DNA from: a virus
Taxonomy: Duplodnaviria; Heunggongvirae; Uroviricota; Caudoviricetes
Virus record (IMG/VR): IMGVR_UViG_3300028030_000006
Location: 29,611-93,610 of that record
DNA length: 64,000 nucleotides
Strand: one strand, 5' to 3'
The translations under genes and the position numbers were made by a program. Below are positions 5,032 through 41,468 of this stretch, piece by piece (position 1 is the first letter of the stretch; the number at the start of each line of letters is the position of its first letter). Under the pieces are notes generated by a model, which saw only the letters and a list, made by a program, of their open reading frames with translations, was not told the DNA's origin and did not search any database.

Positions 5032-8000
5032 ATGGCAGATATGACAAGTTTAGGTACCTTAATTGGTACCGATATAAAAAATATAAATACATGTTTGGGT
5101 ACAAAGTTGAATTGTGCTGGTGGGGCGCTATCTGGAACATTGTTAATGGATAAAATTGGTAGTTGTTCACAATCTATCTATTTTAAAAGCTCTGATTCGA
5201 CCTCTGCTGATTTCGCTATCCGTTCTTACGGTGAAGGGTTAGATTTTTATGAGCCAGAAGATGGTTGTAAATTGCATATGAGAATTTGTGATGACTCTGG
5301 AGTTAATGCTGTCTATGGCTTGATGGAAAATAATGTTAAGTTATGTAATAAGTATTTAGGAAAAACAGCTAAAGCAGCGGATTCTGACAAATTAGATGGC
5401 CAATATAGTAGTGGGTTCAGGAGATCAATTGGTAATGCGTCTGCTAATGTTGGAGTTAATGGAGAATCTCATTGGGTAACTGTTGCTAAGAATGTCGGTG
5501 GTAGGCATAGCGGTACTGTTATTGTCAGTGACCAAGATAGTGGAGATCACTCATTTATTGAAATTAACTGGGTGCGTTCTTATCTAGACTCCTCGTTTAA
5601 TGTTATTAATATTGGAGGACATGCTAACAAGATAACAGGTGTGCGGGTATTATATAATAACAATAATGATGGGTCTAATGGAAATATCTATAAAGAAAAA
5701 TTGTTACAAGTACAAGTGACTGCTCAAAGTACATATTCAGTAAAAGTTATAAGTGACTCATACACACCTGGTTGGGGTGGGCATACTGTAGTTACACCAA
5801 TTGTGGAAGATACAAAAACTGACTATTTAACTAAAGGCCCAGTACTTACAGATATTGCTTGTAATACAAGTGCTATACAGAAACATTTGACTGTTGGGGG
5901 CGATACTAAAGTACATGGAATGATGTGCTCCACTAAATCTTGCAGTAGTTGTGACTATGGGGCTTATATGTGCAGGAGCTGTATCAATACTATTGTAACT
6001 TGTGCAGATAAAGTATTGATGTCAGGTAATATTTGTAGAGATGCCCATTCTAGTGGCTATTTTGTTGGTGGGTATAATAATATTGGGGCCAGTAATACAA
6101 AGACCAACCCAATCTTCACGATTGGTGGTCATTACTTACCTGGGGATAATGATTTATGTAATATGTATGGTATCGGCTATTCTAACCATTGTGCTAACTA
6201 TGATGGTATTTCTAATGTGCTAGGTGGCAGTAATTGGGGTTTATATGTGGCTTCTGCTGGGTGTGCTCGTATTGGTCTTGGATCAAGTAATGGTGTTGGC
6301 TGTGCTGTGAGTTGTTGGAAAGCTCCTGTTATATGTGGAACCACTGCCGTATGTACAGCGTGTATAGCTACTGGGCGATTGGAGGCTACAGCAGACATTA
6401 CTGCTCAAGGTTGTATTTACTCGAATAGTTGTATTGTAACAAGTGGTATTATTAAGGGAGCTACAGTTTGTGGTTTTAATAAAGTAATTGGTCCTGTTGG
6501 ATGTTTTACTACACAAAACACGGTAGGGTACTACAGTAACAACGATACAACACATTGCGGAAAAATAGAATTTCGTTCAGCGTTAAGTGTAGCAAATGCT
6601 GATGATACGTGTCTATCATCTTGCCTATATCTGCACACAAATAATATATTACACTCGAATGTATCTATATGTACTCAAAGATTATACACTAACATTACCT
6701 GTACTGATAGGATTAAATTTAAGCCTGGTACGGCTGGTAGTGATGATGCGTCAATTGAGTGGTTAGGTAGTGACAATGCTGGATGTTTAAGGATATCAAC
6801 TAGTGATGATAATGGTTCTGAGCCAATAGAGTTTGGGGATTATGATAATACACACCAAGGTGGAGCTTTTTGTAGTTGGGGTAGATGGAATAGAGCAGGA
6901 TTACAGCTATCTAATGATTTAGTAGTTAAAGGTGGTGATATATGTATCTGTAACGTTAATAAAGGTATCAGTTTTCAAGACTGTAATAGGATGTGGTTAT
7001 CTACTGGTGGCAATAAAGACTGGGGGTTATTTTGGAATACTGATACTAACTCATTTGAGTTGAAGGCTGCTGGTACAACTAAACAGATCTTTGATATTGA
7101 TGCTAATAGTATTACTGCTGGCTGTTTTTGCGGTAAAGCTAGTAGTGCTAATGGTGCAGATTGTGCTGACCATGCAAGATTTGCTTGTTGTGTATGTGTA
7201 CACCAGACGGATACTGGAACTGGTGAGTATGAGATGGTTTGGCAAAATGCTGATAAGTGTCTGTATAGTTCGACTAGCTTTGTTATATACAGAGGTGGCA
7301 CATCACGGGAAACTCCATTTATTAAAATTGGTGCTTGGGGGTCTGATGACGTAGATAGAACGTCAGCTATCTGTTTTAGAAGTCAGTGTAAGTGCGGTGA
7401 CGGGGATACTGTATGTCATGCAGGATCAGTATACCTTGCAAAAGATGGAGACTTATATACTGCACAAAATTTCCACTCTAACGCACTATATTCTGGTGCT
7501 TTATGCGCTAATACTATCGGTGTAGGACAAACAGACGGTGTTTGTGGCCATGGTGTAAGTTTGTACGGTGGTCCGAGTAGCGGCATGCCAACATACGGTA
7601 TGGCATTTGCAAAAACTTGTACGTATGGTACATATGGTTGTGTGTCTGGAGATTGGGCGACTTATCTTACTATGAGCACTAATGCAGGACGTGGGTGGAT
7701 ATTTAAAGCTGCTGGTGGTAGTAATGTCGCAAGTATTAGTAATGACGGTAGGATGTGGTTAAATAGTAGTATGTACTCTCCTACCATTTGTGGTTGTAAT
7801 TACCAGACTAGAGACCAAAACAGTGGATACTGTCTAAAACACGTATCTAACAGTACTACACCTGTTTGCAGAACGTCTGGTAATATTATAACAGGTGGTA
7901 GTGATTATGCAGGGTTAGGTAAGCTTAACAATGTTGCGGTACAGACATGGTATGGATTTTCTATTAGTCCGACTATTAGTGGGCAAGCTATTGCTCAAGG

Positions 8001-27885: not shown

Positions 27886-28995
27886 TTAAAGTAAAAACCC
27901 AGAGTAATCTTCATCCGTTACCTCTGTATCTAACTTACCTAACAGATAATTCGCACTATCTGTCTCTTTCATGGCAACTTGTACATTTGATAAGTTGCTA
28001 TACTTATCTACCCAAATGCATGGATTTTTTACACGCTTAACAAAGTGTGGTAGCTTCACATTAGACATAACATTATATAAATTGTACTGCACATACTGTT
28101 TCATAATAGCATTACTCACCCCTAGCAGAGGTATAGTCTCTCCCTCAGGGTAACAATAGTCTATCCACTCTAAGTCTGTTTCATACGCATCCTTATACAT
28201 CTGTATTGCTTGTTCTTCAACTTCTGCAAATGCACTAGACCACTCTAAATCGGCTTTTAGTCGTTTTATTAGGTAGTTTGATATCTGATAATGCATGATT
28301 TCATCCATAGATATCTTAGTTACAGCTTTCGCTGAACTTTCCATTATATGATTTTCTGCAAACGCAAAAGTAGTCACAAATGAAGATTTAAAGAAAACCG
28401 ACTCAAGTATGTTTAGAGCATACAGAGACAATACGATAGACTTTTTATGGTTATACTCATCATAATCTGGCGCTTGTAGTACCATCTTACTATTCAAAGT
28501 AATTGTACCATCAAAAGCCTGTGCTATTGCTAGTCCTCGCTTTATAATATGTTCATTAATCATAATATCATCAAATATCTCTTTAGCATCTACAGGTAGT
28601 GCCTTTAGGATTTCTGCGTAGGTTGGGCTATGAACTACACCCTCGAAGAACGCATGCTGGAACCACCACTCCTCGAGTTGCGGGTTTGTCGTTATAGGAC
28701 CAAATACCTCACTAACAGAACGTGCTGCAATCGAATCACCAACAGTCTGAAACTTTAAATTTTTCAGAAATAATACTCTAAGACTTGCAACAAGTTTTGC
28801 ATAATCCTCTCCATCTTTCTTATATGAAAAGTCAGTCTTAAACCAAATAAGCCCTAAAGCCTTATCTGTACGTTTTTGTATATCCTGTTCTAATGACAAA
28901 TCTAAACGTGCAACGTTTCTACCTTTACCTAAGAATAACGGCTCCTGCATAAATTCTATATTATCTGTAGTAAATGTACTAAATTTCACAACCAC
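27886..28995 (-). CDS. nrdB: Ribonucleotide reductase class I beta subunit
   Basis: The R2 ferritin-like fold is indicated by 'EEWWFQHAFFEGVVHS', the iron-ligand E/H spacing and a C-terminal acidic tail. The gene lies adjacent to nrdA. Confidence 0.7.
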   Translation of the reverse strand: MVVKFSTFTTDNIEFMQEPLFLGKGRNVARLDLSLEQDIQKRTDKALGLIWFKTDFSYKKDGEDYAKLVASLRVLFLKNLKFQTVGDSIAARSVSEVFGPITTNPQLEEWWFQHAFFEGVVHSPTYAEILKALPVDAKEIFDDIMINEHIIKRGLAIAQAFDGTITLNSKMVLQAPDYDEYNHKKSIVLSLYALNILESVFFKSSFVTTFAFAENHIMESSAKAVTKISMDEIMHYQISNYLIKRLKADLEWSSAFAEVEEQAIQMYKDAYETDLEWIDYCYPEGETIPLLGVSNAIMKQYVQYNLYNVMSNVKLPHFVKRVKNPCIWVDKYSNLSNVQVAMKETDSANYLLGKLDTEVTDEDYSGFLL

Positions 28996-31252
28996 CTCCT
29001 AAACATGCTTGTTTTGGTTGCTCTTCTACAGATGCAACTCTAGTATTGGTATAGTATAATGTCTTCACTCCGTAATATTTAGCAAAATACATATCTTTTA
29101 GTAAGGTAGCCAATGGTATCTTCCCGCCCTTAAATAAGTCTGGATTATAAAAACGATTAGCACTAATAGACTTATCTATCCACTTCTGTGTTACTGCTAC
29201 ATGCATCAAATAACGTATAGTCATATCTTTAGACTCATAAGCTAACTCATACTGATGTGCTAACTTCCGAACTTGTGGAGCGAATTGCTTCATTGTAGAC
29301 GTCTTATTATTTTTATAGGTAATAAAGTCTTTGATAGGCTCCAACCCATTTGTCTGGCTAGAAGGTCCTGCGGATGACTCTGCTGGTGGCACCATAGAAA
29401 GTGCAACATTCGCCATACCTACCAACATTACACGTTCTCGTAACCAGTCCCAATCTTGAGTATATTCGCGTTGTACTAGCTCATCTACATGTTTGTTATA
29501 CCGGTCTATTGGCATAATGCCTTTAGCGTATGTTGAACGTTCCCAAAATACTGGCGCAGGAGAAGTCTCCTCAGCGATATCAGTTGATGACTTAATCAAA
29601 CTAAACTGAAATAACTCCATCCATTCATCGTGTTTCAGTAACGCCTCTTTACTACCATACTTTAAATTTTGTTTTGCTAGCCAGTATGCATGATTTGAGA
29701 AACCTAGACCTACACTACGATACTGCTCAACGTAAGCTTGGGCTTGTGTTGTTGGATGCTTCTGGCGTAGCATAATATGCGTCTGTGCTCTCAATAGAAT
29801 ATCCACAGTATCTGCGAGTTCATCCATAGGTATTACTCCCTGATTTACATTACCTAGGACACATATAGCAATTGCTGGATCGTCTGGTTTGGTACTCAAT
29901 ACTGGTTTAGTTGGAGATACCTCCTCTACACAGATGTTGGATTGATAAATAGTTTCAACATACGGAGAGTTGGTATTAATATCATCAATATTGATCACAT
30001 AATACGCACTATTTTCAAAAGCTTCCGTGTTTAACTGCTCTAACAGCAACCTAGCTGAGATACGATGGTTATCTGGAAATTCCTCCTCTAGCTGCTCATA
30101 TAATGCAACAAACTCATCCTTGTTCCCAGAATGACATACTTCATATAACTCTTTAGAATCTCTAGTTGAGAATAGCGTAATAACCTTACCAGCTTTAGCA
30201 CGTTCATACACCAAATCACGTAATTTTATGCCATAAGACAAGTCATTAATACGCTTCTCTATTGACGTTCTAGGTGACTTTAGGGCTAGTACTTCTAGTA
30301 TTTCAGGATCGAAGAAAAGTAAGAATGGAGTTGCTGAACCCCGTCTGCCATTCTGTACCGCTTTTTGTATATCAGCATCGATAGATTTTAGTACAGGGAT
30401 TTTCCCTCCGTGGTTTATTAAACCTCCTTTAACTTTGTCACCAATCGATGCAATCGAAGAGACATCGATACCTATCCCAGCAGATGCGGCTGTATGCAAC
30501 ACTAACGCTTTGGAAGCTTCCACCCAAGAATCTAATGAATCACCCATAGAAAGCAGTACACACGAGGCATAATCCGTACTCTCAGTACGTAATGCATCCA
30601 TTTCAGGCGATGGGAACGTAATGTAGAAATCTCGTAACTTCTTGTACAGTTTTTTAATATAGTACATACGATCTTTATGATAATCCCGAAATGTGTCCAT
30701 AGCTATTAACATAAACATATGTTGTGGAAGTTCTATTAAACGTCCGTTATGCTTTTTCATGTAGCGTAACTGCATAAATTCCAAACCTGCTGTAGAGAAG
30801 TTAAAATCGTGTGAGTAATCAATCGCAGACTCGAGGTCTTGAAATTCGTCAGCAGTAAATGAGTCCAATAACACTTGACTATACACCCCATAACTTACAC
30901 CACGCTGTAAAATGTCTATTAATGGTAGCGCATGTTTGGATCTCCCAACATCTTTATACATACGATGAACCATCAAATTTTTAGCTATAATATCATACCA
31001 TATATCTTTAACGGTAGCCATATCTTTCGCAGTTTTAATCAACACCTCATCGATATGTCTAGTAGGGATGCCATTATAGAAATGCAATTTAGCGGCCAAC
31101 TCAATATTACCAATTAAATGCTCGTATTTGCCTTCAGCAGCAGCTTCAAGATGTGAATGAATTTTCCCAACGTCCAAAGGCTCTGTACTGCCATCAGCTT
31201 TGGTAACATTAATTACATTACCTTGCTGTTGAGACATCATACCTCCTCCCAA
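28979..31252 (-). CDS. nrdA: Ribonucleotide reductase class I alpha subunit with ATP-cone
   Basis: N-terminal ATP-cone 'VINVTKADGSTEPLDVGKIHSHLEAAAEG' is present. The active-site region 'NICVEE' and a C-terminal 'CLGGGCEI' thiol pair are present. Length is 757 aa. Confidence 0.8.
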   Translation of the reverse strand: MGGGMMSQQQGNVINVTKADGSTEPLDVGKIHSHLEAAAEGKYEHLIGNIELAAKLHFYNGIPTRHIDEVLIKTAKDMATVKDIWYDIIAKNLMVHRMYKDVGRSKHALPLIDILQRGVSYGVYSQVLLDSFTADEFQDLESAIDYSHDFNFSTAGLEFMQLRYMKKHNGRLIELPQHMFMLIAMDTFRDYHKDRMYYIKKLYKKLRDFYITFPSPEMDALRTESTDYASCVLLSMGDSLDSWVEASKALVLHTAASAGIGIDVSSIASIGDKVKGGLINHGGKIPVLKSIDADIQKAVQNGRRGSATPFLLFFDPEILEVLALKSPRTSIEKRINDLSYGIKLRDLVYERAKAGKVITLFSTRDSKELYEVCHSGNKDEFVALYEQLEEEFPDNHRISARLLLEQLNTEAFENSAYYVINIDDINTNSPYVETIYQSNICVEEVSPTKPVLSTKPDDPAIAICVLGNVNQGVIPMDELADTVDILLRAQTHIMLRQKHPTTQAQAYVEQYRSVGLGFSNHAYWLAKQNLKYGSKEALLKHDEWMELFQFSLIKSSTDIAEETSPAPVFWERSTYAKGIMPIDRYNKHVDELVQREYTQDWDWLRERVMLVGMANVALSMVPPAESSAGPSSQTNGLEPIKDFITYKNNKTSTMKQFAPQVRKLAHQYELAYESKDMTIRYLMHVAVTQKWIDKSISANRFYNPDLFKGGKIPLATLLKDMYFAKYYGVKTLYYTNTRVASVEEQPKQACLGGGCEI

Positions 31253-31524
31253 ATGTCTTTAAATTTGTGATCTGGTGTTGTGATAGACCATAAAGATGGG
31301 AAGTCATTTATGTATCTGAATGCTTTCGATCGAGTGACTAATTTAGTATACCCAGTACGCCGATTTTTAATCGTTACGTGGAAAGCTTCTGCAGTGTACG
31401 CCGGTGTTTTCACTACACCCTCGGCTCTAACAGCCCGTTTAGTTATATATCTTGGTTTTACTTTTGTAGCATCAACAACTCGTTTAATGCTACCTGTAAG
31501 TTCTACTTGATTGTCATCTGTCAT
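31237..31524 (-). CDS. Hypothetical basic protein
   Basis: 95 aa. Its stop overlaps the nrdA start by 16 nt. Confidence 0.4.
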   Translation of the reverse strand: MTDDNQVELTGSIKRVVDATKVKPRYITKRAVRAEGVVKTPAYTAEAFHVTIKNRRTGYTKLVTRSKAFRYINDFPSLWSITTPDHKFKDIWEEV

Positions 31525-31680
31525 GCTTTTCCTTTATTTGCTGTATAAACTTGATAATCTTTTGTATATTATCAGTGGTAGGTTCGGCATTAAGCAGCCT
31601 AGAAGCTTCTTTGTAGTGTTTACCACCGTTGTATCTAAGCCGCTGCAACTCTACTATATAAGAACACGCCTTATTTATGA

Positions 31681-32283
31681 TCATTTAGTTACCTTGTATA
31701 AAAACTTATGACTCTCTGGTATGACTTCGTATAGTAGTTTAGCCAACATTTGAATGTCGTAATGTGCATGGCTTTGTTCTCCGTAACGCATATCAAAAAA
31801 GTGCTGCAATGATTGTACATTAAAACTGACCACTAGATCATATTGCATTGCTTGTGGATATAACATAGCTAAATCTTCGGCTGATATTTTATGCTTTTTT
31901 GCTAATGTATGTATATCTTCAATATGTTTAGATAATAGGGCATTAACATGCTCATTAGGTGTTGTGGTATAGTTGGTCCCAAATTTATCAAGCTTACAGA
32001 ATCTTGAACTCATTACGCTCAAGTCTACAGCCGCTTGATGTCTGCTTAACCCTAGTAAAGTTTTCGTTGATATCCCTTGCACACTAAATGTATATTTCAC
32101 ATGCCGGCTTACTGAGTAATGTCCGTGTTGGTGCAACAACCGTTTTAGGTACTTTTCATCTGTCTCAGTGATATCATCTGTAGCTGTATCATAGTTTCCA
32201 CCTAAATGGAAAGACTGATAGCACACCCTACCACCTATAACTGCGTTACTTAGCTTTGTGTGATCTAATAATTCTACTTGCAT
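31681..32283 (-). CDS. thyX: Flavin-dependent thymidylate synthase, divergent
   Basis: 'VIGGRVCYQSF', 'HGHYSVSRHVKYTFSVQGISTKTLLGLSRHQAAVDLSVMSSRF' parallels the ThyX core 'HeSv.EH..fTF.i.g.SR....qL.RHR.aS.SqqSqRY'. Here RHR reads RHQ and SQRY reads SSRF. Confidence 0.55.
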   Translation of the reverse strand: MQVELLDHTKLSNAVIGGRVCYQSFHLGGNYDTATDDITETDEKYLKRLLHQHGHYSVSRHVKYTFSVQGISTKTLLGLSRHQAAVDLSVMSSRFCKLDKFGTNYTTTPNEHVNALLSKHIEDIHTLAKKHKISAEDLAMLYPQAMQYDLVVSFNVQSLQHFFDMRYGEQSHAHYDIQMLAKLLYEVIPESHKFLYKVTK

Positions 32284-32291
32284 ATTTCTCC

Positions 32292-32912
32292 TTAATTTGT
32301 AGTAAGTACTTCACGTAACTGTTTAACAGCTTTACCATATAATCCTGTATTATAAGATAATCCCTGTAACATTCTGTAAACTTCAGTACGAAGTTTCGGT
32401 TGTAGCTTCTCAATAGCGTCAGCTATATCTTCTAACATAGAATCTTCAACTTCATCAGTAGCATCTTGCATAGCAGTTAAGGATAATTTCACTAGCTCTT
32501 CACTGTTCCTTAGTGCGCGTTTATAAGCAACAGCAGGAATGTGTAAAGCTTCAAGTGTCATATCAATACTAGGTATTTTCTTATGTTCGACTATGTACTC
32601 ATCAATATACGTGTAGATCCTATTTAGTGTATGTTGATGTTTAGTTGATGTGGATGTAATACTACGAATAACAGCACCTGTAACAGCTTGTTGTATGAAG
32701 TTCCCGAATTTACCCTTCTCTGGATCATACCTCTTCTCGGCTACTAACGCAGCAATGATAGCCTCTGAGAGCATATCATCAACATCATGTTTTTTGCCAA
32801 ATTTACGGTGCAATTGATACACAATACGTCTGATCAGTGGTAAATACTGTACTGTTAAGCTGTCAGAATTTTCTGGTAAATCATCAGTAGATAAATTCAT
32901 CAGTAACTCCAT
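32292..32912 (-). CDS. Sigma-70 family sigma factor (region 2 and region 4)
   Basis: 'DDMLSEAIIAALVAEKRYDPEKGKFGNFIQQAVTGAVIRSI' matches region 2.1-2.4 ('DL.QEG.iGL..A...fDp..G.kFstYA...Ir..I'). A C-terminal helix-turn-helix-like segment follows. Confidence 0.5.
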   Translation of the reverse strand: MELLMNLSTDDLPENSDSLTVQYLPLIRRIVYQLHRKFGKKHDVDDMLSEAIIAALVAEKRYDPEKGKFGNFIQQAVTGAVIRSITSTSTKHQHTLNRIYTYIDEYIVEHKKIPSIDMTLEALHIPAVAYKRALRNSEELVKLSLTAMQDATDEVEDSMLEDIADAIEKLQPKLRTEVYRMLQGLSYNTGLYGKAVKQLREVLTTN

Positions 32913-33132
32913 TCAGGTATTCGAGTAACTCTGTTTTATGATTAAACACTTCTGTGACCGTTAACCCATCTTTTACTATTACAATATCATTAAGTGCAGC
33001 ATAATTGTATAAAGGTAGTACTCGAATGATATCATTTAGATCACTAATGTCCTTAAGTATAACTATTGATGTCGTCGGCTCAGGCGAAAAAACCTCCTGA
33101 GTTGTAAATTGTATCATATATTCTCCTTTCAT
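32884..33132 (-). CDS. Hypothetical protein
   Basis: 82-aa ORF overlapping its neighbours by a few codons. Confidence 0.35.
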   Translation of the reverse strand: MKGEYMIQFTTQEVFSPEPTTSIVILKDISDLNDIIRVLPLYNYAALNDIVIVKDGLTVTEVFNHKTELLEYLNGVTDEFIY

Positions 33133-33879
33133 TTAGATAGAGTATATCGGAAAGCTGCTTAAAACTTCCTTAATCTCTGCTTCAGTTACATTATTTGGTA
33201 GCGTAGTCTGATCTTTCCATGATGGTCCAATATCTAACTCAGCTTCGTTGTGGATAACTTGATTCTCACAATAATCTTGTACCATATGAGGGATAAGGTG
33301 GTCGTTTAACCATTTAATACTCTCAACATCAGCTTTCACTAAACCATACAAGGCATCATGTATTTGGTTAGTTACAATAACGTAATCTTGCATACTATCG
33401 TGCTCAATATCTTCTTGTAACCCAATACCAGCTCTGTTCATCAATAAACCGTATGACTGAATACTCATATTATTTAAAGTTCTACCTTCTTTACCAGCAA
33501 TAATACGGTCATTGCTCCATATCCTAGGGGTACGTAATTTTAACCCGAAAGCTCCAATAATGTATCCTGTAGCTTTCGATTTACGTATGTTCTCTTCTGC
33601 AAATTTAGCAGTACCGTAGTACAGCTCATGGTACCCGTCATAAACTGCATTTGCTACAGTTTTAGAGCACTTCAATAGATCCTGTATCTTACCTGGACCT
33701 GAACCATAAGCCATCGCAAAAGATGGGCTTTTACTTTTCGCCCTAATATCTGGCAACTCTGTTTTAATTCTGTTGATGGACTTTGGATCACTCATATCCA
33801 ACTCTTCGCCTAACGCTTCGTCTATCTCGTCTTTAAAGAACGCGTAAGCTCTTAGACTATGTCCATCGAACCCTTCACC
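33133..33879 (-). CDS. DNA polymerase A, C-terminal part (exon 2 or second polypeptide): O-helix (motif B) and motif C
   Basis: The open frame extends upstream of the track start (a TTG at 33801) to a stop at 33880-33882. It contains 'IRAKSKSPSFAMAYGSG' (motif B, R..AK...F...YG) and 'NQIHDALYG' (motif C, with HDA in place of HDE). Confidence 0.6.
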   Translation of the reverse strand, partial: GEGFDGHSLRAYAFFKDEIDEALGEELDMSDPKSINRIKTELPDIRAKSKSPSFAMAYGSGPGKIQDLLKCSKTVANAVYDGYHELYYGTAKFAEENIRKSKATGYIIGAFGLKLRTPRIWSNDRIIAGKEGRTLNNMSIQSYGLLMNRAGIGLQEDIEHDSMQDYVIVTNQIHDALYGLVKADVESIKWLNDHLIPHMVQDYCENQVIHNEAELDIGPSWKDQTTLPNNVTEAEIKEVLSSFPIYSI

Positions 33880-34010
33880 TTAATGTTCAACATAGGTCGT
33901 TAATCTATGCCAGTTCTCTTATGAACTTCTGTATATCTCTATACAGAGCAGATCATCTCAACATCCTAGTAATTTAAGGATGACCACCGTTTCTTCCCAC
34001 TTGGGTTCTA

Positions 34011-34196
34011 CTAGCTTACGCTATGATCGTTAGACATTTTAATAACGTCTGATATAATATTATGTGTAAATAGTTCTGTATTCCCTTTTCTCACCAATAC
34101 TCTCGAGCCTGTATACAATTTATCTTGATGTTTATTACGTATTTGTTGCTCAATTTTGTGGGCTAATTCTAAAGCTTCAAGTTCTACTGAGTACAA
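34011..34196 (-). pseudogene. Remnant of a T5orf172/GIY-YIG-like endonuclease C-terminal domain
   Basis: The 61-aa ORF 'LYTGSRVLVRKGNTELFTHNIISDV' parallels the C-terminus of the neighbouring 315-aa endonuclease ('YYGRKVIRSGNTELYTQDITEI'). Confidence 0.4.
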
Positions 34197-34393
34197 GATG
34201 TAATAATTTCACATTTATATCCGTTATTAATTTAGTACGGGATTGTCCACAACCTTACTTGTTTGGAGTTTCCCCGTTTAGATGGTTTTCGACATAAGAT
34301 TACTCTTATGAAGCCCTGAAATCAAGGAATTCTTTTCGTTTATTGGAGTCACCTGAAACCTGAGCCCCCACCCTATCTTCCTTTAAGGTTCCT

Positions 34394-35341
34394 TTAAGGT
34401 TCCTTTGTAATACTACCTAGGTATTTTGTGGTAATTTCGGTAATATCTTGGGTGTAAAGTTCAGTATTTCCTGACCTAATTACTTTTCGTCCGTAGTACT
34501 TGAATGGTTTTAATATTCCAGCTAGGTCAGCCTCTGCCTTATATGCTAATTCGCTAGAACCAAACGTATGCTGGTAGAGTACTATGTAAGGTTCAGGCTC
34601 TCCACTAAACCTATGTTTTACTGTATGTATAGTAACTCCAAGCTTCCATAAATTAAGTCGGGTAAAGTATATGACATACAAGAGTGTTTTAGTTTCTATG
34701 TCTTTATTTAAGTACCCTCGGTTACATAATGGACATCCTTTCCCTTTTCGATGGTTTTGATAGTCTTGTCTCACCTCGCCATGCACAGGACAGTCATAGA
34801 TAATCGTTGGATTTGCATCGACGCGTGCATAGATTAGGTCTTTATATGTATAAGTATGATTATGTGTTTGTATTAGTAGAGGTATTACCTGCTTTAACAT
34901 TACACGCTTCTGTTTGGCTGATGATAGAAAACCACAACACTTACAACCCTTACCTTGTAGATGATCATATTTTCTCTGTTTTCTAATACCATGCTCCATA
35001 CATATATAATAGACGTAATGTTTATCGATTTTTACATAACTATACTGATTATTATGAATTTTAGAGCAACGAATTTTAAAATCTTTAAATGATATCCTCC
35101 GATTAAGACCACGCTGCTTTCTAGCACAGATAGGACACCCATATTTAGTCTTGAGAATACCATCTGGCGTACTAGTAAAGTCTCCATGTAACTTACATGT
35201 AAATACTGATTTACATTTTGCACAAGAAAAGCTAAATTTATCTGTTAGAATCTTGCCATGGAATCTATTTTTGATTCGTTCTCTGTAAACCATAGAATAA
35301 TCTTTCACTTTACTTTCCTTCTGTTTTGTTGTTAATACCAC
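34394..35341 (-). CDS. Homing endonuclease-like protein: N-terminal Zn-ribbon repeats plus C-terminal T5orf172/GIY-YIG-superfamily domain
   Basis: Repeated CxxC pairs (CAKCKS, CPICARK, CKCCG, CPLCNRG) are present. The C-terminal 'LLYVIYFTRLNLWKLGVTIHTVKHRF...AEADLAGILKPF...GNTELYTQD' fits the T5orf172 pattern. The gene is located inside the polA interruption. Confidence 0.55.
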   Translation of the reverse strand: MVLTTKQKESKVKDYSMVYRERIKNRFHGKILTDKFSFSCAKCKSVFTCKLHGDFTSTPDGILKTKYGCPICARKQRGLNRRISFKDFKIRCSKIHNNQYSYVKIDKHYVYYICMEHGIRKQRKYDHLQGKGCKCCGFLSSAKQKRVMLKQVIPLLIQTHNHTYTYKDLIYARVDANPTIIYDCPVHGEVRQDYQNHRKGKGCPLCNRGYLNKDIETKTLLYVIYFTRLNLWKLGVTIHTVKHRFSGEPEPYIVLYQHTFGSSELAYKAEADLAGILKPFKYYGRKVIRSGNTELYTQDITEITTKYLGSITKEP

Positions 35342-35605
35342 ACTATGTCTCCATAGTGAATAGACTATATCACCACCCGTAGTGTAATCTACGGGGCTCC
35401 CCGTTTCGAGCTACCACTGCTCTACGTCTTACGACTAGTCGTTGAACCTTATCCATATCTAATAAAGACTTAGGATCTTGGCTGCTGATTGTCTCTATTA
35501 CTTAAATTTTCAGAGTTCGTTACATATTTCTATGTGATATTCTATTAAGTACCTTATAAGATATTCCAGCAATTAGAGGAGTTTTTCCAAATCTTATTAC
35601 TAAGA

Positions 35606-37393
35606 TTAGGCGCTCAAAGATTCAAGCGCCGCGTAGTCAGACGACCAAAATAAATAACCTTCTGGGGCGGGAAAGCAGGCTTTAATCAATTTTCCCATCG
35701 CCCCTTTTGAAGGGAGATTCGCGAAGTTTGGTGAGTTACTACTCAACCGACCTGTTACAGTTCCTCCAAGACGTTGATTGCCGTACAGACGTCCAATATC
35801 TCCTTGCCCTACATCTGTCCAAAGATCTTCAAACGCCTTCAAGAATGTTGATAGTACGATACTAGTCTCTGAGATAGTTATAAGATTTTCTAATGCCTCC
35901 TTAGCATCCGGATCTGTTACTTTATCTAAAAACTCTATAATACTGTCACGATTAGTTTTAGGTTGCTTTTTATCTGTAAAGTCAATAGGCTCAAACTCTA
36001 GAATATCAAAGAGTAATACACGTAGCTGAGCAGAACTATTAGGGTTAAATTTAAGATCCACAAAATCATCCGCAGTTTTCTTTTTAACTTTAGTCTTAGC
36101 ATTATACTTATCAGCAGCCTCTAGACGTAGTTGTGTTAGAGCCTGTTTGACGTAGAAATTATCTTGCAACGTATCCATAGCTGCATCATAGAGTTTCTTA
36201 ACGTGTATTTTTGCTTCTTTTGTCTTTGTTTTTGAGATAGGCAACCCGGCTACCATCATATTTACTAAGTACTTTAAAGAGGGTTGAATAATAATACGAT
36301 ATGTATCTTCTTGCTCTTCTTCTTGCATAAGCTTATAGTATTTATTATAGACCCAAAACGTGCCTACTACATCCATTGCATTGTACTTATAGAGAGTATC
36401 TTTAGGTAAAGCTAGTACGTCTTTAACGTCGACTGCATAATCACCCAAGTACTCATAAGCTAAGTCCTTCAAAGATAATGAGAATCTAGATGTACTATTC
36501 AAAGATAAAAATGCCATTAGCATCGTATCTTCCGAATCTAAATAATTAGCACCTAACGTACGCCCAATGTGATCTAAAGGGTCTGCCATAAACAGATGAC
36601 GCACTAAAAACTTAGCATCAAATAAATAGTTATGGAAAATCTTAACACCATTGTAAGCAATAAAAAACTCTTTAAGCCAACCTTTAACTTCTTCTGCTTT
36701 ATCTTTACGCTCTTGGTCAGTACCTTCCCACAACGATTCATGTATAGGTAAAGTAACCGCTTGAGTATCAGACCATGCAAATGCAATAGACACCAACTCA
36801 TCACGCTCAAAGCGTAAACCTGTAGCCTCAATATCAATAGCTAGTATATCTTTGGATAATAGATGCTGTAATTCCCTCTCAGTACGTATTACCTTATAAA
36901 AATCAAACTTGAATTTTTTATCTTCTATTTCCTCATGGTTCATCTCAGCGGCTATACGTTTTAATGCTAAGTCTTGAGTTTTCTGCCGATCAGGGTACAT
37001 TTGAAGTAACACATGACTAAGCATAGGAATTACTTTAATATGCTCATAGCCTGAAATAGCACATTGAAAGGCTTTACCAGCATTCTTTTCAATGCCTTTT
37101 GTACCAGCTAAGTAATAAAAATACTTTGAATCTGTAACAATGATACGTTCAATCCCAAGTGTATCACACTCGTCTAACACCTCACTAGCACTTTCCACTA
37201 AATCCTTCTTTTTCAGATTTCCTGTAGCTGGGTAGTATAAGCCAATAGCTCCTATGTCAGCACCTGCAGGCACCTCAGTAGAGTATTTACTTATTGGGTA
37301 GATATAATTTTTTAGTATGAGATCCTTTTTGAGATTCACTTGCTTAACTAGTAACGCCGTTGTTTGATTAGTATCTATACCAAATCTTAACAT
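35606..37393 (-). CDS. DNA polymerase A, N-terminal part (exon 1): 3'-5' exonuclease domain plus polymerase palm up to motif A
   Basis: Exo I 'LAIDIEATGL' is present. The polymerase region ends with motif A 'FWSSDYAALE' and then runs into an in-frame stop after 'SLSA'. Confidence 0.7.
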   Translation of the reverse strand: MLRFGIDTNQTTALLVKQVNLKKDLILKNYIYPISKYSTEVPAGADIGAIGLYYPATGNLKKKDLVESASEVLDECDTLGIERIIVTDSKYFYYLAGTKGIEKNAGKAFQCAISGYEHIKVIPMLSHVLLQMYPDRQKTQDLALKRIAAEMNHEEIEDKKFKFDFYKVIRTERELQHLLSKDILAIDIEATGLRFERDELVSIAFAWSDTQAVTLPIHESLWEGTDQERKDKAEEVKGWLKEFFIAYNGVKIFHNYLFDAKFLVRHLFMADPLDHIGRTLGANYLDSEDTMLMAFLSLNSTSRFSLSLKDLAYEYLGDYAVDVKDVLALPKDTLYKYNAMDVVGTFWVYNKYYKLMQEEEQEDTYRIIIQPSLKYLVNMMVAGLPISKTKTKEAKIHVKKLYDAAMDTLQDNFYVKQALTQLRLEAADKYNAKTKVKKKTADDFVDLKFNPNSSAQLRVLLFDILEFEPIDFTDKKQPKTNRDSIIEFLDKVTDPDAKEALENLITISETSIVLSTFLKAFEDLWTDVGQGDIGRLYGNQRLGGTVTGRLSSNSPNFANLPSKGAMGKLIKACFPAPEGYLFWSSDYAALESLSA

Positions 37394-37656: not shown

Positions 37657-37948
37657 CTAACTCCTCCAATTTGAGTTGACGTATCCTCTCATCACATATA
37701 TGTTTAATTTTTTCATAGTCAGTAATTCTAGAATCGCCTTGCTTGGTACGCAATACTCGTTTAATAATGTCAGCATCCCAAGCATTTAAGCTATATTCTT
37801 TCCAGACCGCCCAAGGCTGTATGAAATGATTTGAGTAGTCACTAGTACCTACATTAGTACCACGAACTTCTGTATCTAACATACCGAGCTCTAACAGCTT
37901 TTTGTAGATAGGTTGCGGCACCACCTCCAATTTTTCCTCATCTATCAT
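37643..37948 (-). CDS. Hypothetical protein
   Basis: 101-aa ORF. Confidence 0.35.
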   Translation of the reverse strand: MIDEEKLEVVPQPIYKKLLELGMLDTEVRGTNVGTSDYSNHFIQPWAVWKEYSLNAWDADIIKRVLRTKQGDSRITDYEKIKHICDERIRQLKLEELDDKI

Positions 37949-39249
37949 TCTTCAATCCTCCCTATATGTTGAGATATGACCTTCTCTAAGGTATCAGCGT
38001 CATCCAGATCCACTCGCATTTGATCATACCTAGGTAAAAATAGACTATAAGTATCACTATCACGGCCTTTAATAAGTACATTAAACGTCACTTCGATAAT
38101 CTTACCTATTGGCGGCGTTTTAGTAAACATTTTAACATGCTCATCTGACAGTCCGCTACCGACGTTCACCTTGATCCGCCCATCAGCAGACTCACAAACT
38201 AGAGATCCTACCTGCCCAGCACGCTTACCTTTACCATTTACGACACCAACTACTCTCAATGAACATGAATTAACAGCTTTCATCTTAATCCAAGCTTTAG
38301 TACGTTTAAAGTTATATGGTGCATTTCTATCTTTAATAATTACACCCTCACCACCGGCATTTATAATCTCCTCATTAAACTGTTTAACTTGTCGCATTGA
38401 AGTCGCTAATCTAGACTCGGTAGTCTTTATATGTAGGGATTTAGTAAAAATTACACGTTTTTGTAATGAAAGTGTACGTTCATATTGAGGGTTAGACTTT
38501 CCTTGAGTTAAAAATACGTCTGTAGGAAGCTCATCAAAAGTGGAATACGTAATTATATCGTCGCTATTTGGCTGGTATCCGGACTTCAGGTTTTTATTAC
38601 AAATCCCTGATATAACAGTACGCTGTTCAGTGATTAATTCCCCATCAAACGTTAAGTCCTCACCATTAGCAACTTCTAAACATGCCTTCTCAATCTGAGG
38701 AAAGTGCAGTTCTCGGCCTTGTCGAGTAAATAGTGTACATTTATTATCTTTGATAACTGCTAAACATCTTACACCATCCTCTTTCTTTTCAACAATAGCA
38801 GGAAACTTGAACTTTACCTTCTCATCAAGCGGTGATGCTAAACCGCACTTGAATGTAGGGATAAAAGTATATCCAAAAGCTTTATTTACAGCTGTATCTA
38901 CACCTAACGCTAACTGTTTAGTGATAATACCTTCAACTACTTCTACAACGTCGGGATGTGTGTGTGACAACACGTTTAATGCCTTTTGTCGTAATTTATC
39001 ATTGATATTACTACTACGCAATATGTCTAGTAAAGATATAACATCATCAAACGTTGTAGTAGGCTCCAACATACGATACTCTTCAAATTTCTTAATCTTA
39101 TAAGAATACATAGGGTTTAACCTATATAAAAGTAAAGTCCGAAAATCTGCATCATCTTTGTACTTACGTAATACCTCAAGTTTATCATTTTTTCCGGTGG
39201 TACTTTTCAGTTCTTGTAATTTCTGTGTTGCTTGTTTTAATCGTTCCAT
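37945..39249 (-). CDS. ATP-dependent DNA/RNA ligase (nucleotidyltransferase with KxDG motif I)
   Basis: Motif I 'VEKKEDGVRCLAV' is present, along with downstream nucleotidyltransferase/OB-like regions. Length is 434 aa. Confidence 0.6.
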   Translation of the reverse strand: MERLKQATQKLQELKSTTGKNDKLEVLRKYKDDADFRTLLLYRLNPMYSYKIKKFEEYRMLEPTTTFDDVISLLDILRSSNINDKLRQKALNVLSHTHPDVVEVVEGIITKQLALGVDTAVNKAFGYTFIPTFKCGLASPLDEKVKFKFPAIVEKKEDGVRCLAVIKDNKCTLFTRQGRELHFPQIEKACLEVANGEDLTFDGELITEQRTVISGICNKNLKSGYQPNSDDIITYSTFDELPTDVFLTQGKSNPQYERTLSLQKRVIFTKSLHIKTTESRLATSMRQVKQFNEEIINAGGEGVIIKDRNAPYNFKRTKAWIKMKAVNSCSLRVVGVVNGKGKRAGQVGSLVCESADGRIKVNVGSGLSDEHVKMFTKTPPIGKIIEVTFNVLIKGRDSDTYSLFLPRYDQMRVDLDDADTLEKVISQHIGRIEE

Positions 39250-41468
39250 CTCTCTCCTTTAATTAGTTTAAAGTAATCATCCCGAAGCTTGACAGCATCA
39301 GTATACGGATATTTTGTAGCCAGTTCAATTACATGATACTCGATAGCTCTATACATATTTTCACGTATTTGTTGAAGTTTGCTTCTATCATCCTTAACTT
39401 TATATACTCTTGTTGCAACTGCTCGCATATGTTTCCAAAAACGATACCATCTAGTTTTATATTTAAATCGGTAGCCGTTAGCCCCTACATAAACATACCC
39501 TTCAACGAAGTTTTGACGATCTGCATTAGTATCTTGCTCCATCTCTTCGATATCTGCACGAAGTTCTTCTATAGTACTTATAACTTTTACTACAGATACT
39601 CGATGAACACCCTCGAACAGTACTTGTACATTAATCATTTCAACCTCACTTAAAACCTCAAACTTAATTTGATTCTTAATGGCATCGAGTAAAATTATTT
39701 CTGGTTTAGTATATTTAACTATATGTGGATCTTTTATTGGTTCGATTACTTCAAATGTGAGTGTAACATTATTATCCACTAGAAAATCTCGTAATTCATC
39801 TGTTAGATATGGTTTAAGCTGTTCACGAAACCATATACTATGGGATGATGTAATAGAGCTTTTTGATGCTATAAACCAAGCATCTTTGATAGTATCATAC
39901 GATAAAAGTCCTAAGTAACCATTAGGTTTTTCAACCTTCACGGTAGGGAATGTGATCTGGTTTGTGATTGCATCAAAATCTGTTTGAGGGTTCTCTTTAT
40001 AATTGAAAAACTTCTCGTAGCCTCTTGCAATAATGCTAGAGTCACTACGTATGAATAATCCTCGAGCTTTCGTAGATATGTCATCATACGTACCAGTTTT
40101 AAACGCTTTAGTAGTAAAGTTACAAGCAAACACATCATAGTCTAACTCTCTAACATTTACCATAGTATGTTCCTGCATTAGCTCAAATAAAGGTTTATCA
40201 TTCGCACATACACAAGTAGTTGAAGGCTCATATAATGAAGGATTAGTAGTAAAAGTATAGTCGGTATTTTTAACGGTATGTACTGTACAATCACCATCAA
40301 CAGGCACAATAACAGCTACTAACTCTCCACCATACTCAACGTTTCCTGTGATATTATACATACGATTTTTTACAACTTCTGGCTTCTGTTGTTTAATATT
40401 ACGATGTCCGTGTATTTGCAGCGCACGTGTTGGCATAGCATTAAGCCAATGTTCTTGTATCTTAGTAATATCAGAATAACTACCAACTCCTTTAATGAAT
40501 TCCTTAGTAGATGTTAGCAAACTAGGTATAGTGGGATATCCTGCATGATTAGCGAAAATAATACGATCACCAAACTTAGCATGAAACATTTGCCAATATC
40601 TAGTACGTAAACGTGTTACATCTTTTACTGTAATACCTGCCTGCATAAACTGATAAAAAGTTCGACGTGTTGCTGGGGATAGTTTAACTGTGCGTTTAAA
40701 TTCAGCATACTTATGATCTCCCGATGTACGTGCTGCTAACCACTCTTTGTAATGTATTAAGTGAGAATCATGATTACCTTCTAGTAGTACGTAATCAGGA
40801 CTGTCTTGGATAAGTTTAAATACTCCAGCCGCATCCTCTCCTCGATCAAACAAATCACCGATAAACACTGTCAACTGTTTATCCTGTTCTGTATCACTTA
40901 AGATTTGTTTAAGTTGTTTAAAGGAACTATGAACATCACCGATAAATCTAATACTATTATACTTATCCGTATAATCGAATAACGCTTCGTCTATTGTAAA
41001 CTCATCAGGTTTTACTACTTTAATCCAAGAAGGTATTATATTGTACTGAATACGCGCATACATGTTATCAATAACGTCTGCAGGAACTCTTTTAACGCCG
41101 CGTAAATCATTACGGCGGTGTAATTCTTCTAACGATACATCTCTAAAATCTACTGCAATAATTCGATATCTATACTGTTTGGCAAGTGTACGATACCTAT
41201 TAATCAGTTTAGAGCGCGTATGTGTTGCATCAATAATTGTAAAATCACCATTCTGCATTCGATGTTCTAGTAGTGTGAATAAGTGATCCCACACAGCTCC
41301 GTCATTCTTTTGTGATATGCCTTTGGATCCGTCTATCTGAGTTTCTGGTGCTTGGTACTGTAATCTAATAATGTCTGGAGACAATGTATAAGATTCTAAT
41401 CCTTGTGACGCAATCCACGTCGATTTTCCTGAAGCTGGCGTACCTACAGTAATAACTAATGTTCTCAT
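39237..41468 (-). CDS. Pnkp-like trifunctional end-healing/sealing enzyme: polynucleotide kinase, lambda-phosphatase-like phosphoesterase, and a C-terminal ligase-like domain
   Basis: The P-loop 'ITVGTPASGKSTW' is present. Phosphoesterase motifs 'GDVH', 'GDLFDRGED', 'LEGNHD' and 'HGHR' are present. The C-terminal 'VEKPNGYLGL' resembles ligase motif I (KxNG, as in Rnl2 KIHG). Confidence 0.55.
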   Translation of the reverse strand: MRTLVITVGTPASGKSTWIASQGLESYTLSPDIIRLQYQAPETQIDGSKGISQKNDGAVWDHLFTLLEHRMQNGDFTIIDATHTRSKLINRYRTLAKQYRYRIIAVDFRDVSLEELHRRNDLRGVKRVPADVIDNMYARIQYNIIPSWIKVVKPDEFTIDEALFDYTDKYNSIRFIGDVHSSFKQLKQILSDTEQDKQLTVFIGDLFDRGEDAAGVFKLIQDSPDYVLLEGNHDSHLIHYKEWLAARTSGDHKYAEFKRTVKLSPATRRTFYQFMQAGITVKDVTRLRTRYWQMFHAKFGDRIIFANHAGYPTIPSLLTSTKEFIKGVGSYSDITKIQEHWLNAMPTRALQIHGHRNIKQQKPEVVKNRMYNITGNVEYGGELVAVIVPVDGDCTVHTVKNTDYTFTTNPSLYEPSTTCVCANDKPLFELMQEHTMVNVRELDYDVFACNFTTKAFKTGTYDDISTKARGLFIRSDSSIIARGYEKFFNYKENPQTDFDAITNQITFPTVKVEKPNGYLGLLSYDTIKDAWFIASKSSITSSHSIWFREQLKPYLTDELRDFLVDNNVTLTFEVIEPIKDPHIVKYTKPEIILLDAIKNQIKFEVLSEVEMINVQVLFEGVHRVSVVKVISTIEELRADIEEMEQDTNADRQNFVEGYVYVGANGYRFKYKTRWYRFWKHMRAVATRVYKVKDDRSKLQQIRENMYRAIEYHVIELATKYPYTDAVKLRDDYFKLIKGERWND

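Follow-up and report, generated by a model that had tools for sequence, protein, structure and literature searches.

Organization of the DNA polymerase locus

The window analysed here is a 64,000-nt stretch of DNA from an uncultivated virus (positions 29,611 to 93,610 of the IMG/VR record IMGVR_UViG_3300028030_000006, Caudoviricetes), in which positions 33133..37393 are occupied by an interrupted gene for a family-A DNA polymerase. All genes in the polymerase part of the window lie on the minus strand. The upstream open reading frame (ORF), 37393..35606(-), encodes 595 amino acids that include the Pfam domain DNA_pol_A_exo1 and the first 163 positions of the DNA_pol_A profile, and it ends with SSDYAALE followed by SLSA and a stop codon. 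The downstream ORF, 33801..33133(-), covers positions 204-380 of DNA_pol_A; its frame is open back to 33879, with the first start codon at 33801. Between these two polymerase ORFs there are a zinc-ribbon ORF, mechanically listed as 34394..35341, and a 61-aa ORF at 34011..34196. This layout agrees with an earlier note on the same DNA, which had described a 595-aa ORF that spans the 3'-5' exonuclease domain and part of the palm, as far as motif A, before reading into a stop, and a downstream frame with motif B (IRAKSK..YGSG) and motif C (QIHDALYG). The outer boundaries that it had placed at ~35620 and ~33879 are only 1-4 nt away from the splice sites predicted below (35624|35623 and 33878|33877). 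When the whole region was compared by megablast with 50,697 phage records, no match was returned, and the nearest annotated polymerases belong to the Schitoviridae, at ~33-36% identity (for example, Vibrio phage 1.224.A and Klebsiella phage P184, both with unsplit genes).

We propose, with a probability of about 0.88, that this phage polymerase is encoded by one gene of three exons, which would be joined by the self-splicing of two group IA2 introns located 56 nt apart. The two introns are inserted in and just after polymerase motif A. Exon 1 (35624..37393, minus strand) comprises 590 codons, from the N-terminal region through the 3'-5' exonuclease domain into the palm, as far as DYAAL of motif A, and is recognized by Pfam PF01612 (DNA_pol_A_exo1) and PF00476 (DNA_pol_A). 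It ends with ...GCG CTT, and its last base, U35624, pairs with a G in the P1 helix of the first intron. Exon 2 is a mini-exon of 56 nt (34325..34380, minus strand; GAAGAT...GAATTCCT), which sits between the stop codon of an endonuclease gene and the second ribozyme. Its sequence from 34380 to 34325, GAA GAT AGG GTG GGG GCT CAG GTT TCA GGT GAC TCC AAT AAA CGA AAA GAA TTC CT, encodes E DRVGAQVSGDSNKRKEF and stops two bases into a Leu codon. Exon 3 (33133..33877, minus strand) supplies the last base of this Leu codon and continues with EGFDGHSLRAY..., motifs B and C and the stop codon; it also belongs to PF00476. The predicted spliced junctions are ..GCGGCGCTT|GAAGATAGG..GAATTCCT|TGAAGGGTTC, and the exon 1-exon 2 junction of an intron-less gene would read TCGTCTGACTACGCGGCGCTTGAAGATAGGGTGGGGGCTCAG.

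The mini-exon was recognized by comparison with unsplit homologues, a check that the earlier note had itself proposed. BLASTP alignments of exon 1 with unsplit Schitoviridae polymerases end at ..DYASLE, and those of exon 3 pick up at DGFDGH. The 18 residues found between DYxxLE and DGFDGH in the unsplit proteins (DRVNALITKDKNKLKVYT / DRINALLTQDPNKVKVFT) are missing from both large ORFs of the window, and their counterpart is encoded at 34380..34325, where the mini-exon residues (EDRVGAQVSGDSNKRKEFL) fill this 18-19-residue gap. Joining 37393..35624, 34380..34325 and 33877..33133 produces a reading frame of 2571 nt that encodes 856 amino acids and contains no internal stops. The resulting protein matches PF00476 in one stretch (8-380 of 381) with 144 bits, compared with 128.9 bits for the direct join of the two large parts.

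In a phmmer search against PDB, the segment SSDYAALEDRVGAQVSGDSNKRKEFLEGFDGHSLRA of the three-exon protein aligns to the Klenow fragment with no gaps, including both junctions (DYAAL|EDRVGAQVSGDSNKRKEFL|EGFDGH), and the real match to the ELRxxAH motif falls inside the mini-exon. If residues D705 and E710 of Klenow, which we take as the basis of the E. coli Pol I numbering, are used as a reference, the site of intron 1 would lie between codons 709/710 and that of intron 2 within the codon aligned with A728, both positions being approximate. An intein was also considered for the interruption and rejected: the frame stops five codons past the break, where an intein would be expected to continue in frame without stops and to have Cys/Ser ... 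His-Asn + Cys/Ser/Thr boundaries. For annotation, the gene is to be called as a single three-exon polymerase of 856 aa; gene callers would otherwise give two polymerase fragments and lose 19 conserved residues, including the Glu aligned to Klenow E710.

Structure of intron 1

The first intron (34381..35623, minus strand; 1243 nt) is assigned to group IA2. Its 5' splice site follows GCGCUU, and its 3' end reads ..CCUUAAAG, the last base being a G. The covariance-model search suggested in the earlier note identified a ribozyme core (P1-P9; 35341..35634, minus strand) that begins exactly at the frame break of the polymerase and matches the entire Rfam model RF00028 (Intron_gpI; positions 1-253 of 253) with 92 bits and an E value of 2.7e-22, compared with a gathering score of 50. 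No other intron match was returned when the whole window was scanned with Rfam at gathering thresholds. The P1 helix is formed by GGCGCUUGA/UUGAGCGCC with a U.G pair at the splice site (GGCGCU-U.G), the terminal G is G34381, and P10 consists of 6 bp between GAAGAU of exon 2 and AUCUUU of the intron, beside the guide sequence.

Subgroup IA2 is defined by two helices, P7.1 and P7.2, located between P7 and P3' and linked by G-U-A (PMC3428280). Both introns of the window have this arrangement, which in intron 1 takes the form GUCGUAAGAC-GUA-GAGC..GCUC. In addition, both possess a P1 helix with U.G at the splice site, a terminal G, a P10 helix and a P3-P8 core with the P3/P7 pseudoknot.

Close to the 3' end of intron 1 we read from the sequence an 11-nt tandem duplication (34384..34405, minus strand), in which AAGGAACCTTA occurs twice. 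It overlaps the stop codon of the endonuclease gene, and its end lies 3 nt short of the 3' splice site; an identical duplication is present in a related metagenomic contig (L005, see below) and is missing from relatives that are more distant. Placing the 3' splice site at the first copy instead was tried and rejected, as it leaves a P10 of only 3 bp and shifts the reading frame.

Structure of intron 2

The second intron, also assigned to group IA2, is much shorter (33878..34324, minus strand; 447 nt), with a 5' splice site after GAAUUCCU and a 3' end reading ..CAUUAAGG. Its P1 is CCU|U/AGGG with the U.G pair at U34325, the terminal G is G33878, and P10 consists of 5 bp between UGAAG of exon 3 and UUUCA. 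The helices compiled by hand comprise P2 (AUAAGA/UCUUAU), P3 (ACCAUC/GGUGGU), P4 (ACGGGG/UCCCGU), P5, P7 (GAUCA/UGAUC), P8 (CAUCCU/AGGAUG), P9 (CUGUAUA-GAGA-UAUACAG), P9.1 and P9.2, all of those listed being fully complementary. The P6a element (34039..34230, minus strand) has a perfect 9-bp stem, UUAAUAACG/CGUUAUUAA, that closes a loop containing an endonuclease remnant. The IA2 signature of this intron, UAGCGUAAGCUA-GUA-..CCCAAGUGGG, corresponds to P7.1 (UAGC-GUAA-GCUA), then GUA, then P7.2 (CCC-AAGU-GGG). An unconstrained minimum-free-energy fold of the intron with the loop removed (z = -3.1) yields P2, P3, P4, P5, P6a, P7.1, P7.2, P8, P9, P9.1 and P9.2; the P7 pseudoknot was not recovered by this fold. 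Compared with the family sequence GACUA/UAGUC, the P7 helix carries two compensatory swaps. Further, annotated group I introns from phages of Staphylococcus, Bacillus, Pseudomonas and Shigella match the 3' half of the intron with 70-77% identity.

Relatives of intron 2 were collected by a P4-P5-P4' pattern search, which retrieved 33 viral contigs, and eight relatives lacking ORFs were aligned with it (alignment A5). When intron 2 was aligned to intron 1-type cores by MAFFT, P5 and P6 were placed wrongly, and the hand-made helix table was used instead. In A5, 94.4% of the cells are paired, compared with 34-42% in slid controls, and none of 500 shuffles scored as high. Both sides of the helix have changed in 22 of the 33 pairs, which supports P3, P5, P6, P7 and P9.

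Several observations weigh against the proposed gene structure, most of them concerning intron 2. Its P1 pairs only three exon bases. Its match to RF00028 (34337..33929, minus strand), obtained in a permissive scan of 33000..36000, is full-length but weak, at 23.9 bits and an E value of 0.003, and thus remains below the gathering score of 50. This low score can be explained by ~190 nt inserted in P6a, which Rfam misplaced between J6/7 and P3'; group I membership is therefore argued from the other features described above. In the covariation test, P4 is invariant because the search pattern prescribes it, and the loop of P6a had been taken out manually prior to alignment. Among the relatives found, none has an intron at the exact site of intron 2, so the case for a functional intron is built on its structure and on the reading frame. 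Finally, we infer the splicing of both introns from the DNA sequence.

Natural alleles and related polymerase genes

The junction between exons 2 and 3 is fixed by a naturally occurring allele. An 88-kb metagenomic contig (L005), which represents the same phage as contig L011, encodes a polymerase with 57-66% amino acid identity to that of the window. In these two contigs, intron 1 with a 75%-identical endonuclease gene is present at the same site (96.7 bits in Rfam) and has the same 3' end, ...CCTTAAAG|GAAGATAGG. Intron 2 is absent from L005, where the exon 2/3 junction is read straight through as GAGTTCCT^TGAAGGATATGATGGGCAT within the region ...AAAGAGTTCCT TGAAGGATATGATGGGCAT (EFLEGYDGH). 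This contig is thus an intron 2-less allele, which determines the exon 2/exon 3 junction to the base. Another relative, L010, is 70% identical in this region and lacks both introns, its allele reading ..GCTTTAGAGGATAGG... In both L005 and L010, the 56-nt segment is contiguous with exon 3 and is ordinary coding sequence.

Other elements were found in the polymerase genes of the relatives. The gene of L010 (Ga0164318_10027461) contains at 3053-3979 an in-frame intein of 309 codons (CVTKD...IVTHN|T) with an HNH-like motif, inserted at RLGGTQ|TGRLSS, ~45 codons upstream of the intron 1 site. In L009 (a 4.7-kb contig of ERZ22666193; positions 799-2571) two group I introns with 79 and 83 bits are separated by an exon of 12-15 nt (GAAGATAGAATT[AGT]). 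Its second 5' splice site is ambiguous, the P1 of the Rfam match favouring 12 nt and the protein length together with a 4-bp P1 favouring 15. The polymerase of L013 (AZID01016792.1; 4871-7790) is interrupted at least four times; the interruptions include intron 1 together with its endonuclease gene, a segment of ~290 nt (6105-6385), an intron of 251 nt that lacks an ORF and separates GYDG from H, and an intron near residue 663 with a second DUF723-type ORF located 5' of the core. The segment 6105-6385 gave no RNA-family match at E <= 10, and a weak Rfam match at 6422-6653 was not reproduced in a narrower search. In L012 (Ga0256827_10041053; 1217-2250), an intron at or next to the intron 1 site has an HNH-type endonuclease ORF placed after its 5' splice site and ahead of its core, and the contig ends within the ribozyme core.

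Two interruptions were observed in published phages. In Klebsiella phage Pylas (NC_049444; 2846-3504 of locus L003), an HNH gene breaks the polymerase a few codons from the intron 2 site, and a joined coding sequence (CDS) has been annotated. No group I match at E<0.1 was found at this break, and the non-coding sequence is too short for a ribozyme core; the Pylas polymerase may be a true split gene or may contain an unrecognised element. In Shigella phage Moonfish (PQ613263; 1976-2645 of locus L056), the annotation gives the polymerase as two separate CDS flanking an HNH gene, and there is a group I match of 33 bits. The break occurs at ..GRLSASEP|NLQTIP.., the classic site of the SPO1/Pf-WMP3 type, and the interruption is probably an unannotated intron.

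Within ~70 nt of coding sequence, the relatives thus have introns at at least three sites, with up to four interruptions per gene, exons of 12-15 nt and an intein nearby, which makes this region a hot spot for insertion. One tentative explanation, which we consider possible though rather unlikely, is that in this clade of polymerases from uncultivated phages selfish elements stack on the stretch from motif A to GFDGH, and that intron 2, having no endonuclease of its own, has been maintained and spread by hitch-hiking in the co-conversion tract of the T5orf172-type endonuclease of intron 1.

Alternative explanations of the interrupted gene

The earlier note had favoured one 1.7-kb group I intron as the source of the interruption. 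The group I kind of the insertion is borne out by RF00028; its unity is not, as two tandem introns with a 56-nt exon between them are predicted. In the single-intron explanation, ~1.75 kb would be removed in one step (from ~35620 to ~33879), or the mini-exon would be skipped, and the inner ribozyme-like region and the 61-aa ORF would be debris. It is helped by the fact that the outer boundaries are real splice sites in our model as well, by the partial similarity of the exon 3 start, UGAAGG, to the GAAGAU paired by the guide of intron 1, and by reported cases of exon skipping over neighbouring phage introns, in the SIOphi terminase and Twort orf142 (PMC11878797). However, the direct join of 35624 to 33877 creates CTT|TGA, an immediate stop, and the join originally put forward, DYAALE(S)LRAYAFF, drops ~19 residues whose conservation extends to every homologue and to Klenow. 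The parallel that had been drawn between this join and T7 DASGLELRCLAHF (LRAYAFF / LRCLAHF) turns out to be a coincidence, the ELRxxAH counterpart being encoded by the mini-exon. Moreover, the internal region has its own P1, P10 and complete core, and the 56-nt segment is read as coding sequence in the intron 2-less and intron-less alleles, which makes a single intron extremely unlikely.

Equally hard to credit is a polymerase in pieces, the alternative that the note had left standing, in which an endonuclease invasion has separated products of 595 aa and ~222 aa that are translated apart and then assemble. Such separate polypeptides are known from the split ribonucleotide reductase of an Aeromonas phage and have been proposed for split gene 43 of some T4-like phages. 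The two large ORFs and the in-frame stop five codons into the insert fit this explanation, as does the polymerase of Pylas, in which an HNH ORF intervenes at a nearby position and no ribozyme is detected. In the window, by contrast, a full-length, high-scoring ribozyme begins exactly at the break, the C-terminal frame has no start before TTG 33801, by which point ~25 codons of conserved sequence have already passed, and the 19 residues of the mini-exon, including the Glu that matches Klenow E710, would be present in neither polypeptide.

It is also very unlikely that only intron 1 splices, intron 2 being a dead relic and the polymerase a pseudogene in a defective or mis-assembled genome. The sub-threshold Rfam score, the short P1 and the decayed endonuclease gene of intron 2 point in this direction. 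Against them stand the intactness of every core helix, the copy-specific compensatory changes in P7, the 5-bp P10, and flanking exons that hold a perfect frame with conserved residues; the low score is accounted for by the ~190-nt insertion in P6a that Rfam misplaced, and the 64 kb of coding region that contain this essential polymerase gene are otherwise intact. We therefore retain the gene with three exons and two spliced introns as the preferred interpretation.

Endonuclease genes

The homing endonuclease gene of intron 1 (34394..35308, minus strand) is located 3' of P9 and encodes a protein of 304 aa with a GTG start. The start codon is most likely GTG 35308, which is preceded by an AGGA Shine-Dalgarno sequence seven bases upstream and yields a product, MKDYSMVYRERIKNRFHGK, that aligns with MKNYQDIYTKRIKDKYNGQ of the 75%-identical homologue P0002. 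The protein had been described in the earlier note as a 315-aa T5orf172/GIY-YIG-like endonuclease with zinc ribbons; the fold and the zinc fingers were recovered and the length was revised. It consists of three to four CxxC...CxxC zinc-finger repeats (DUF723/CapR-like) and a C-terminal GIY-YIG/T5orf172-like domain. The conserved CxxC/H pairs include C38, H41, C58, C61, C103, H106, C122, C125, C173, H186, C192 and C195, and R233 and E259 are nearly invariant in the endonuclease alignment (A4).

In Pfam, the protein matched only DUF723 (E 1e-5, in two stretches), and in PHROGs it matched phrog_681 'endonuclease' (E 2e-29). The profile PF10544 (T5orf172) of the GIY-YIG clan did not match the window endonuclease even at E <= 10; the family assignment therefore rests on fold searches. 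An AlphaFold (AF2) model built with 12 sequences reached a predicted local distance difference test score (pLDDT) of 84.6, and Foldseek comparison with BFVD returned full-length T5orf172, GIY-YIG and CapR-homology matches with E values of 1e-19 to 1e-16, those to T5orf172 and GIY-YIG proteins being at 1e-19 to 1e-18, in agreement with a GIY-YIG fold, with modest scores. Among 12 aligned homologues, DUF723 was detected in 10, CapR in four, T5orf172 in two (best E 0.0078) and MUG113 in one (E 0.0038).

The 61-codon ORF (34011..34196, minus strand) is a T5orf172-like endonuclease remnant located in the P6a loop of intron 2. It matches only the last ~55 columns of A4 (..E..GNTELFT..), with 28% identity to the intron 1 enzyme, and it had no Pfam or PHROG match. 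Only the C-terminal part is left, and neither the GIY, YIG and Arg motifs nor any zinc finger has survived, which makes it a decayed gene. The earlier note had recorded it as the remnant of a second such domain; it proves, however, to belong to P6a of a separate intron and not to a second domain within one insert.

Proposed splicing and mobility

In the proposed scheme, each intron would fold separately after transcription. A guanosine would attack the 5' splice site behind the U of the P1 U.G pair in each intron, and the freed exon end would then attack the bond after the terminal G, with P10 holding the exons. The 856-aa frame would be restored only once both introns are gone. More speculatively, splicing over so short an exon may need a defined order, and skipping of the mini-exon, with the CTT|TGA stop that it creates, could then serve as an off-switch.

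The mobile element is likely to be intron 1. During co-infection its enzyme presumably cleaves those polymerase alleles of relatives that lack the intron, its zinc-finger array providing DNA recognition; repair of the cut allele would copy the intron in (homing). Intron 2 formerly bore a related endonuclease gene in its P6a loop, now decayed to 61 codons lacking catalytic motifs. It would no longer be mobile by itself and would persist only as a passenger still capable of splicing, perhaps moved along within the co-conversion tract of intron 1. Such joint transfer is suggested by the distance of 56 nt between the two introns, which is within a typical co-conversion distance. The two are nonetheless separable, as L005 has intron 1 without intron 2. 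Endonuclease activity, homing and hitch-hiking are all proposed by analogy with known systems.

Comparison with known phage introns and endonucleases

Like the introns of the window, the introns described in phage family-A polymerase genes (SPO1/SP82 with I-HmuI/II, Bastille with I-BasI, Pf-WMP3 with I-PfoP3I, the T7-like PhiI/W31 and Xanthomonas phage phiL7) belong to subgroup IA2 and have P7.1/P7.2. The published polymerase introns are self-splicing, interrupt highly conserved motifs and carry a homing endonuclease gene (PMC3428280). The nucleotide similarity of the two window introns to annotated phage introns is 68-77%. The two differ from the published introns in their insertion sites, ~709/710 and ~728/729 in E. 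coli Pol I numbering, compared with 674, 676 and 881 for the published introns (PMC3428280). Furthermore, the published polymerase intron endonucleases are all of the HNH type, whereas the window enzyme combines zinc fingers with a GIY-YIG/T5orf172-like domain, and its ORF is located after P9 rather than in P6a.

Phage genes with several introns have been described in the Bastillevirinae (polymerase, terminase and ribonucleotide reductase), in ICP1 (tape-measure) and in Twort (orf142); such essential genes contain two to three group I introns each, with a small exon between them, variable endonuclease occupancy and decayed endonuclease genes (PMC11878797, PMC10448857). The gene of the window belongs to another lineage, its polymerase being closest to the Schitoviridae (33-36%), and has other insertion sites; its mini-exon measures 56 nt, compared with 12-15 nt in L009. 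Among the published N4-like phages (Schitoviridae), the polymerase gene of the PhAPEC5-like Shigella phage Moonfish is interrupted by a group I intron that contains an HNH ORF. The P9-P9.2 tail of this intron is ~69% identical to that of window intron 2, whereas its site is ..SEP|NLQ.. and not motif A. The N4-like Vibrio phage pVa5 has a td intron (PMC5746245). Unlike the window, none of Moonfish, Pylas and pVa5 has two tandem introns.

T5orf172 endonucleases with CapR/DUF723/DUF4397 zinc-finger arrays were described in ICP1, T5-like and Vibrio phages (Barth et al. 2023, PMC10448857). The window endonuclease resembles these enzymes in its N-terminal CxxC zinc fingers and its C-terminal domain of the GIY-YIG superfamily; however, they are free-standing beside essential genes, whereas the window enzyme is encoded inside an intron. 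The state of intron 2 is similar to that of the T4 nrdB intron with the defunct I-TevIII, which is splicing-competent with a P6a endonuclease ORF decayed by deletion (PMC2790892, PMC1865063). It differs in the host gene, in the endonuclease family and in the location of the decayed intron 56 nt from an intact mobile one.

Polymerase IA2 introns, genes with two to three introns, small exons, decayed endonucleases and T5orf172 endonucleases are thus already published (PMC3428280, PMC11878797, PMC10448857, PMC2790892, PMC5746245), and our understanding of group I introns is unchanged by these findings. What is new here is the two insertion sites, the family of endonuclease inside a polymerase intron and the phage lineage. 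In a non-exhaustive literature search, we found no account of these sites or of a T5orf172-type enzyme encoded by an intron of a phage polymerase gene. The two sites are added to the short list for family-A polymerase introns (674, 676 and 881), and a zinc-finger/GIY-YIG (T5orf172-like) endonuclease is placed within an intron. The alleles form a natural series with no intron, with intron 1 only, and with intron 1 and a second intron at differing sites, which can serve the study of endonuclease decay, intron persistence and splicing over very short exons.

Neighbouring genes

Near the polymerase gene, a 743-aa protein with PNK-like AAA_33, metallophosphatase and T4 RNA ligase 1 domains adjoins an ATP-dependent DNA ligase (39237-41468(-) and 37945-39249(-)); this fusion protein looks like an RNA-repair enzyme. 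Downstream of the polymerase (27886-32912(-)) there are genes for a sigma-70 region-2 protein (32292..32912), ThyX (31681..32283) and the large (28979..31252) and small (27886..28995) subunits of a class I ribonucleotide reductase, all of them uninterrupted.

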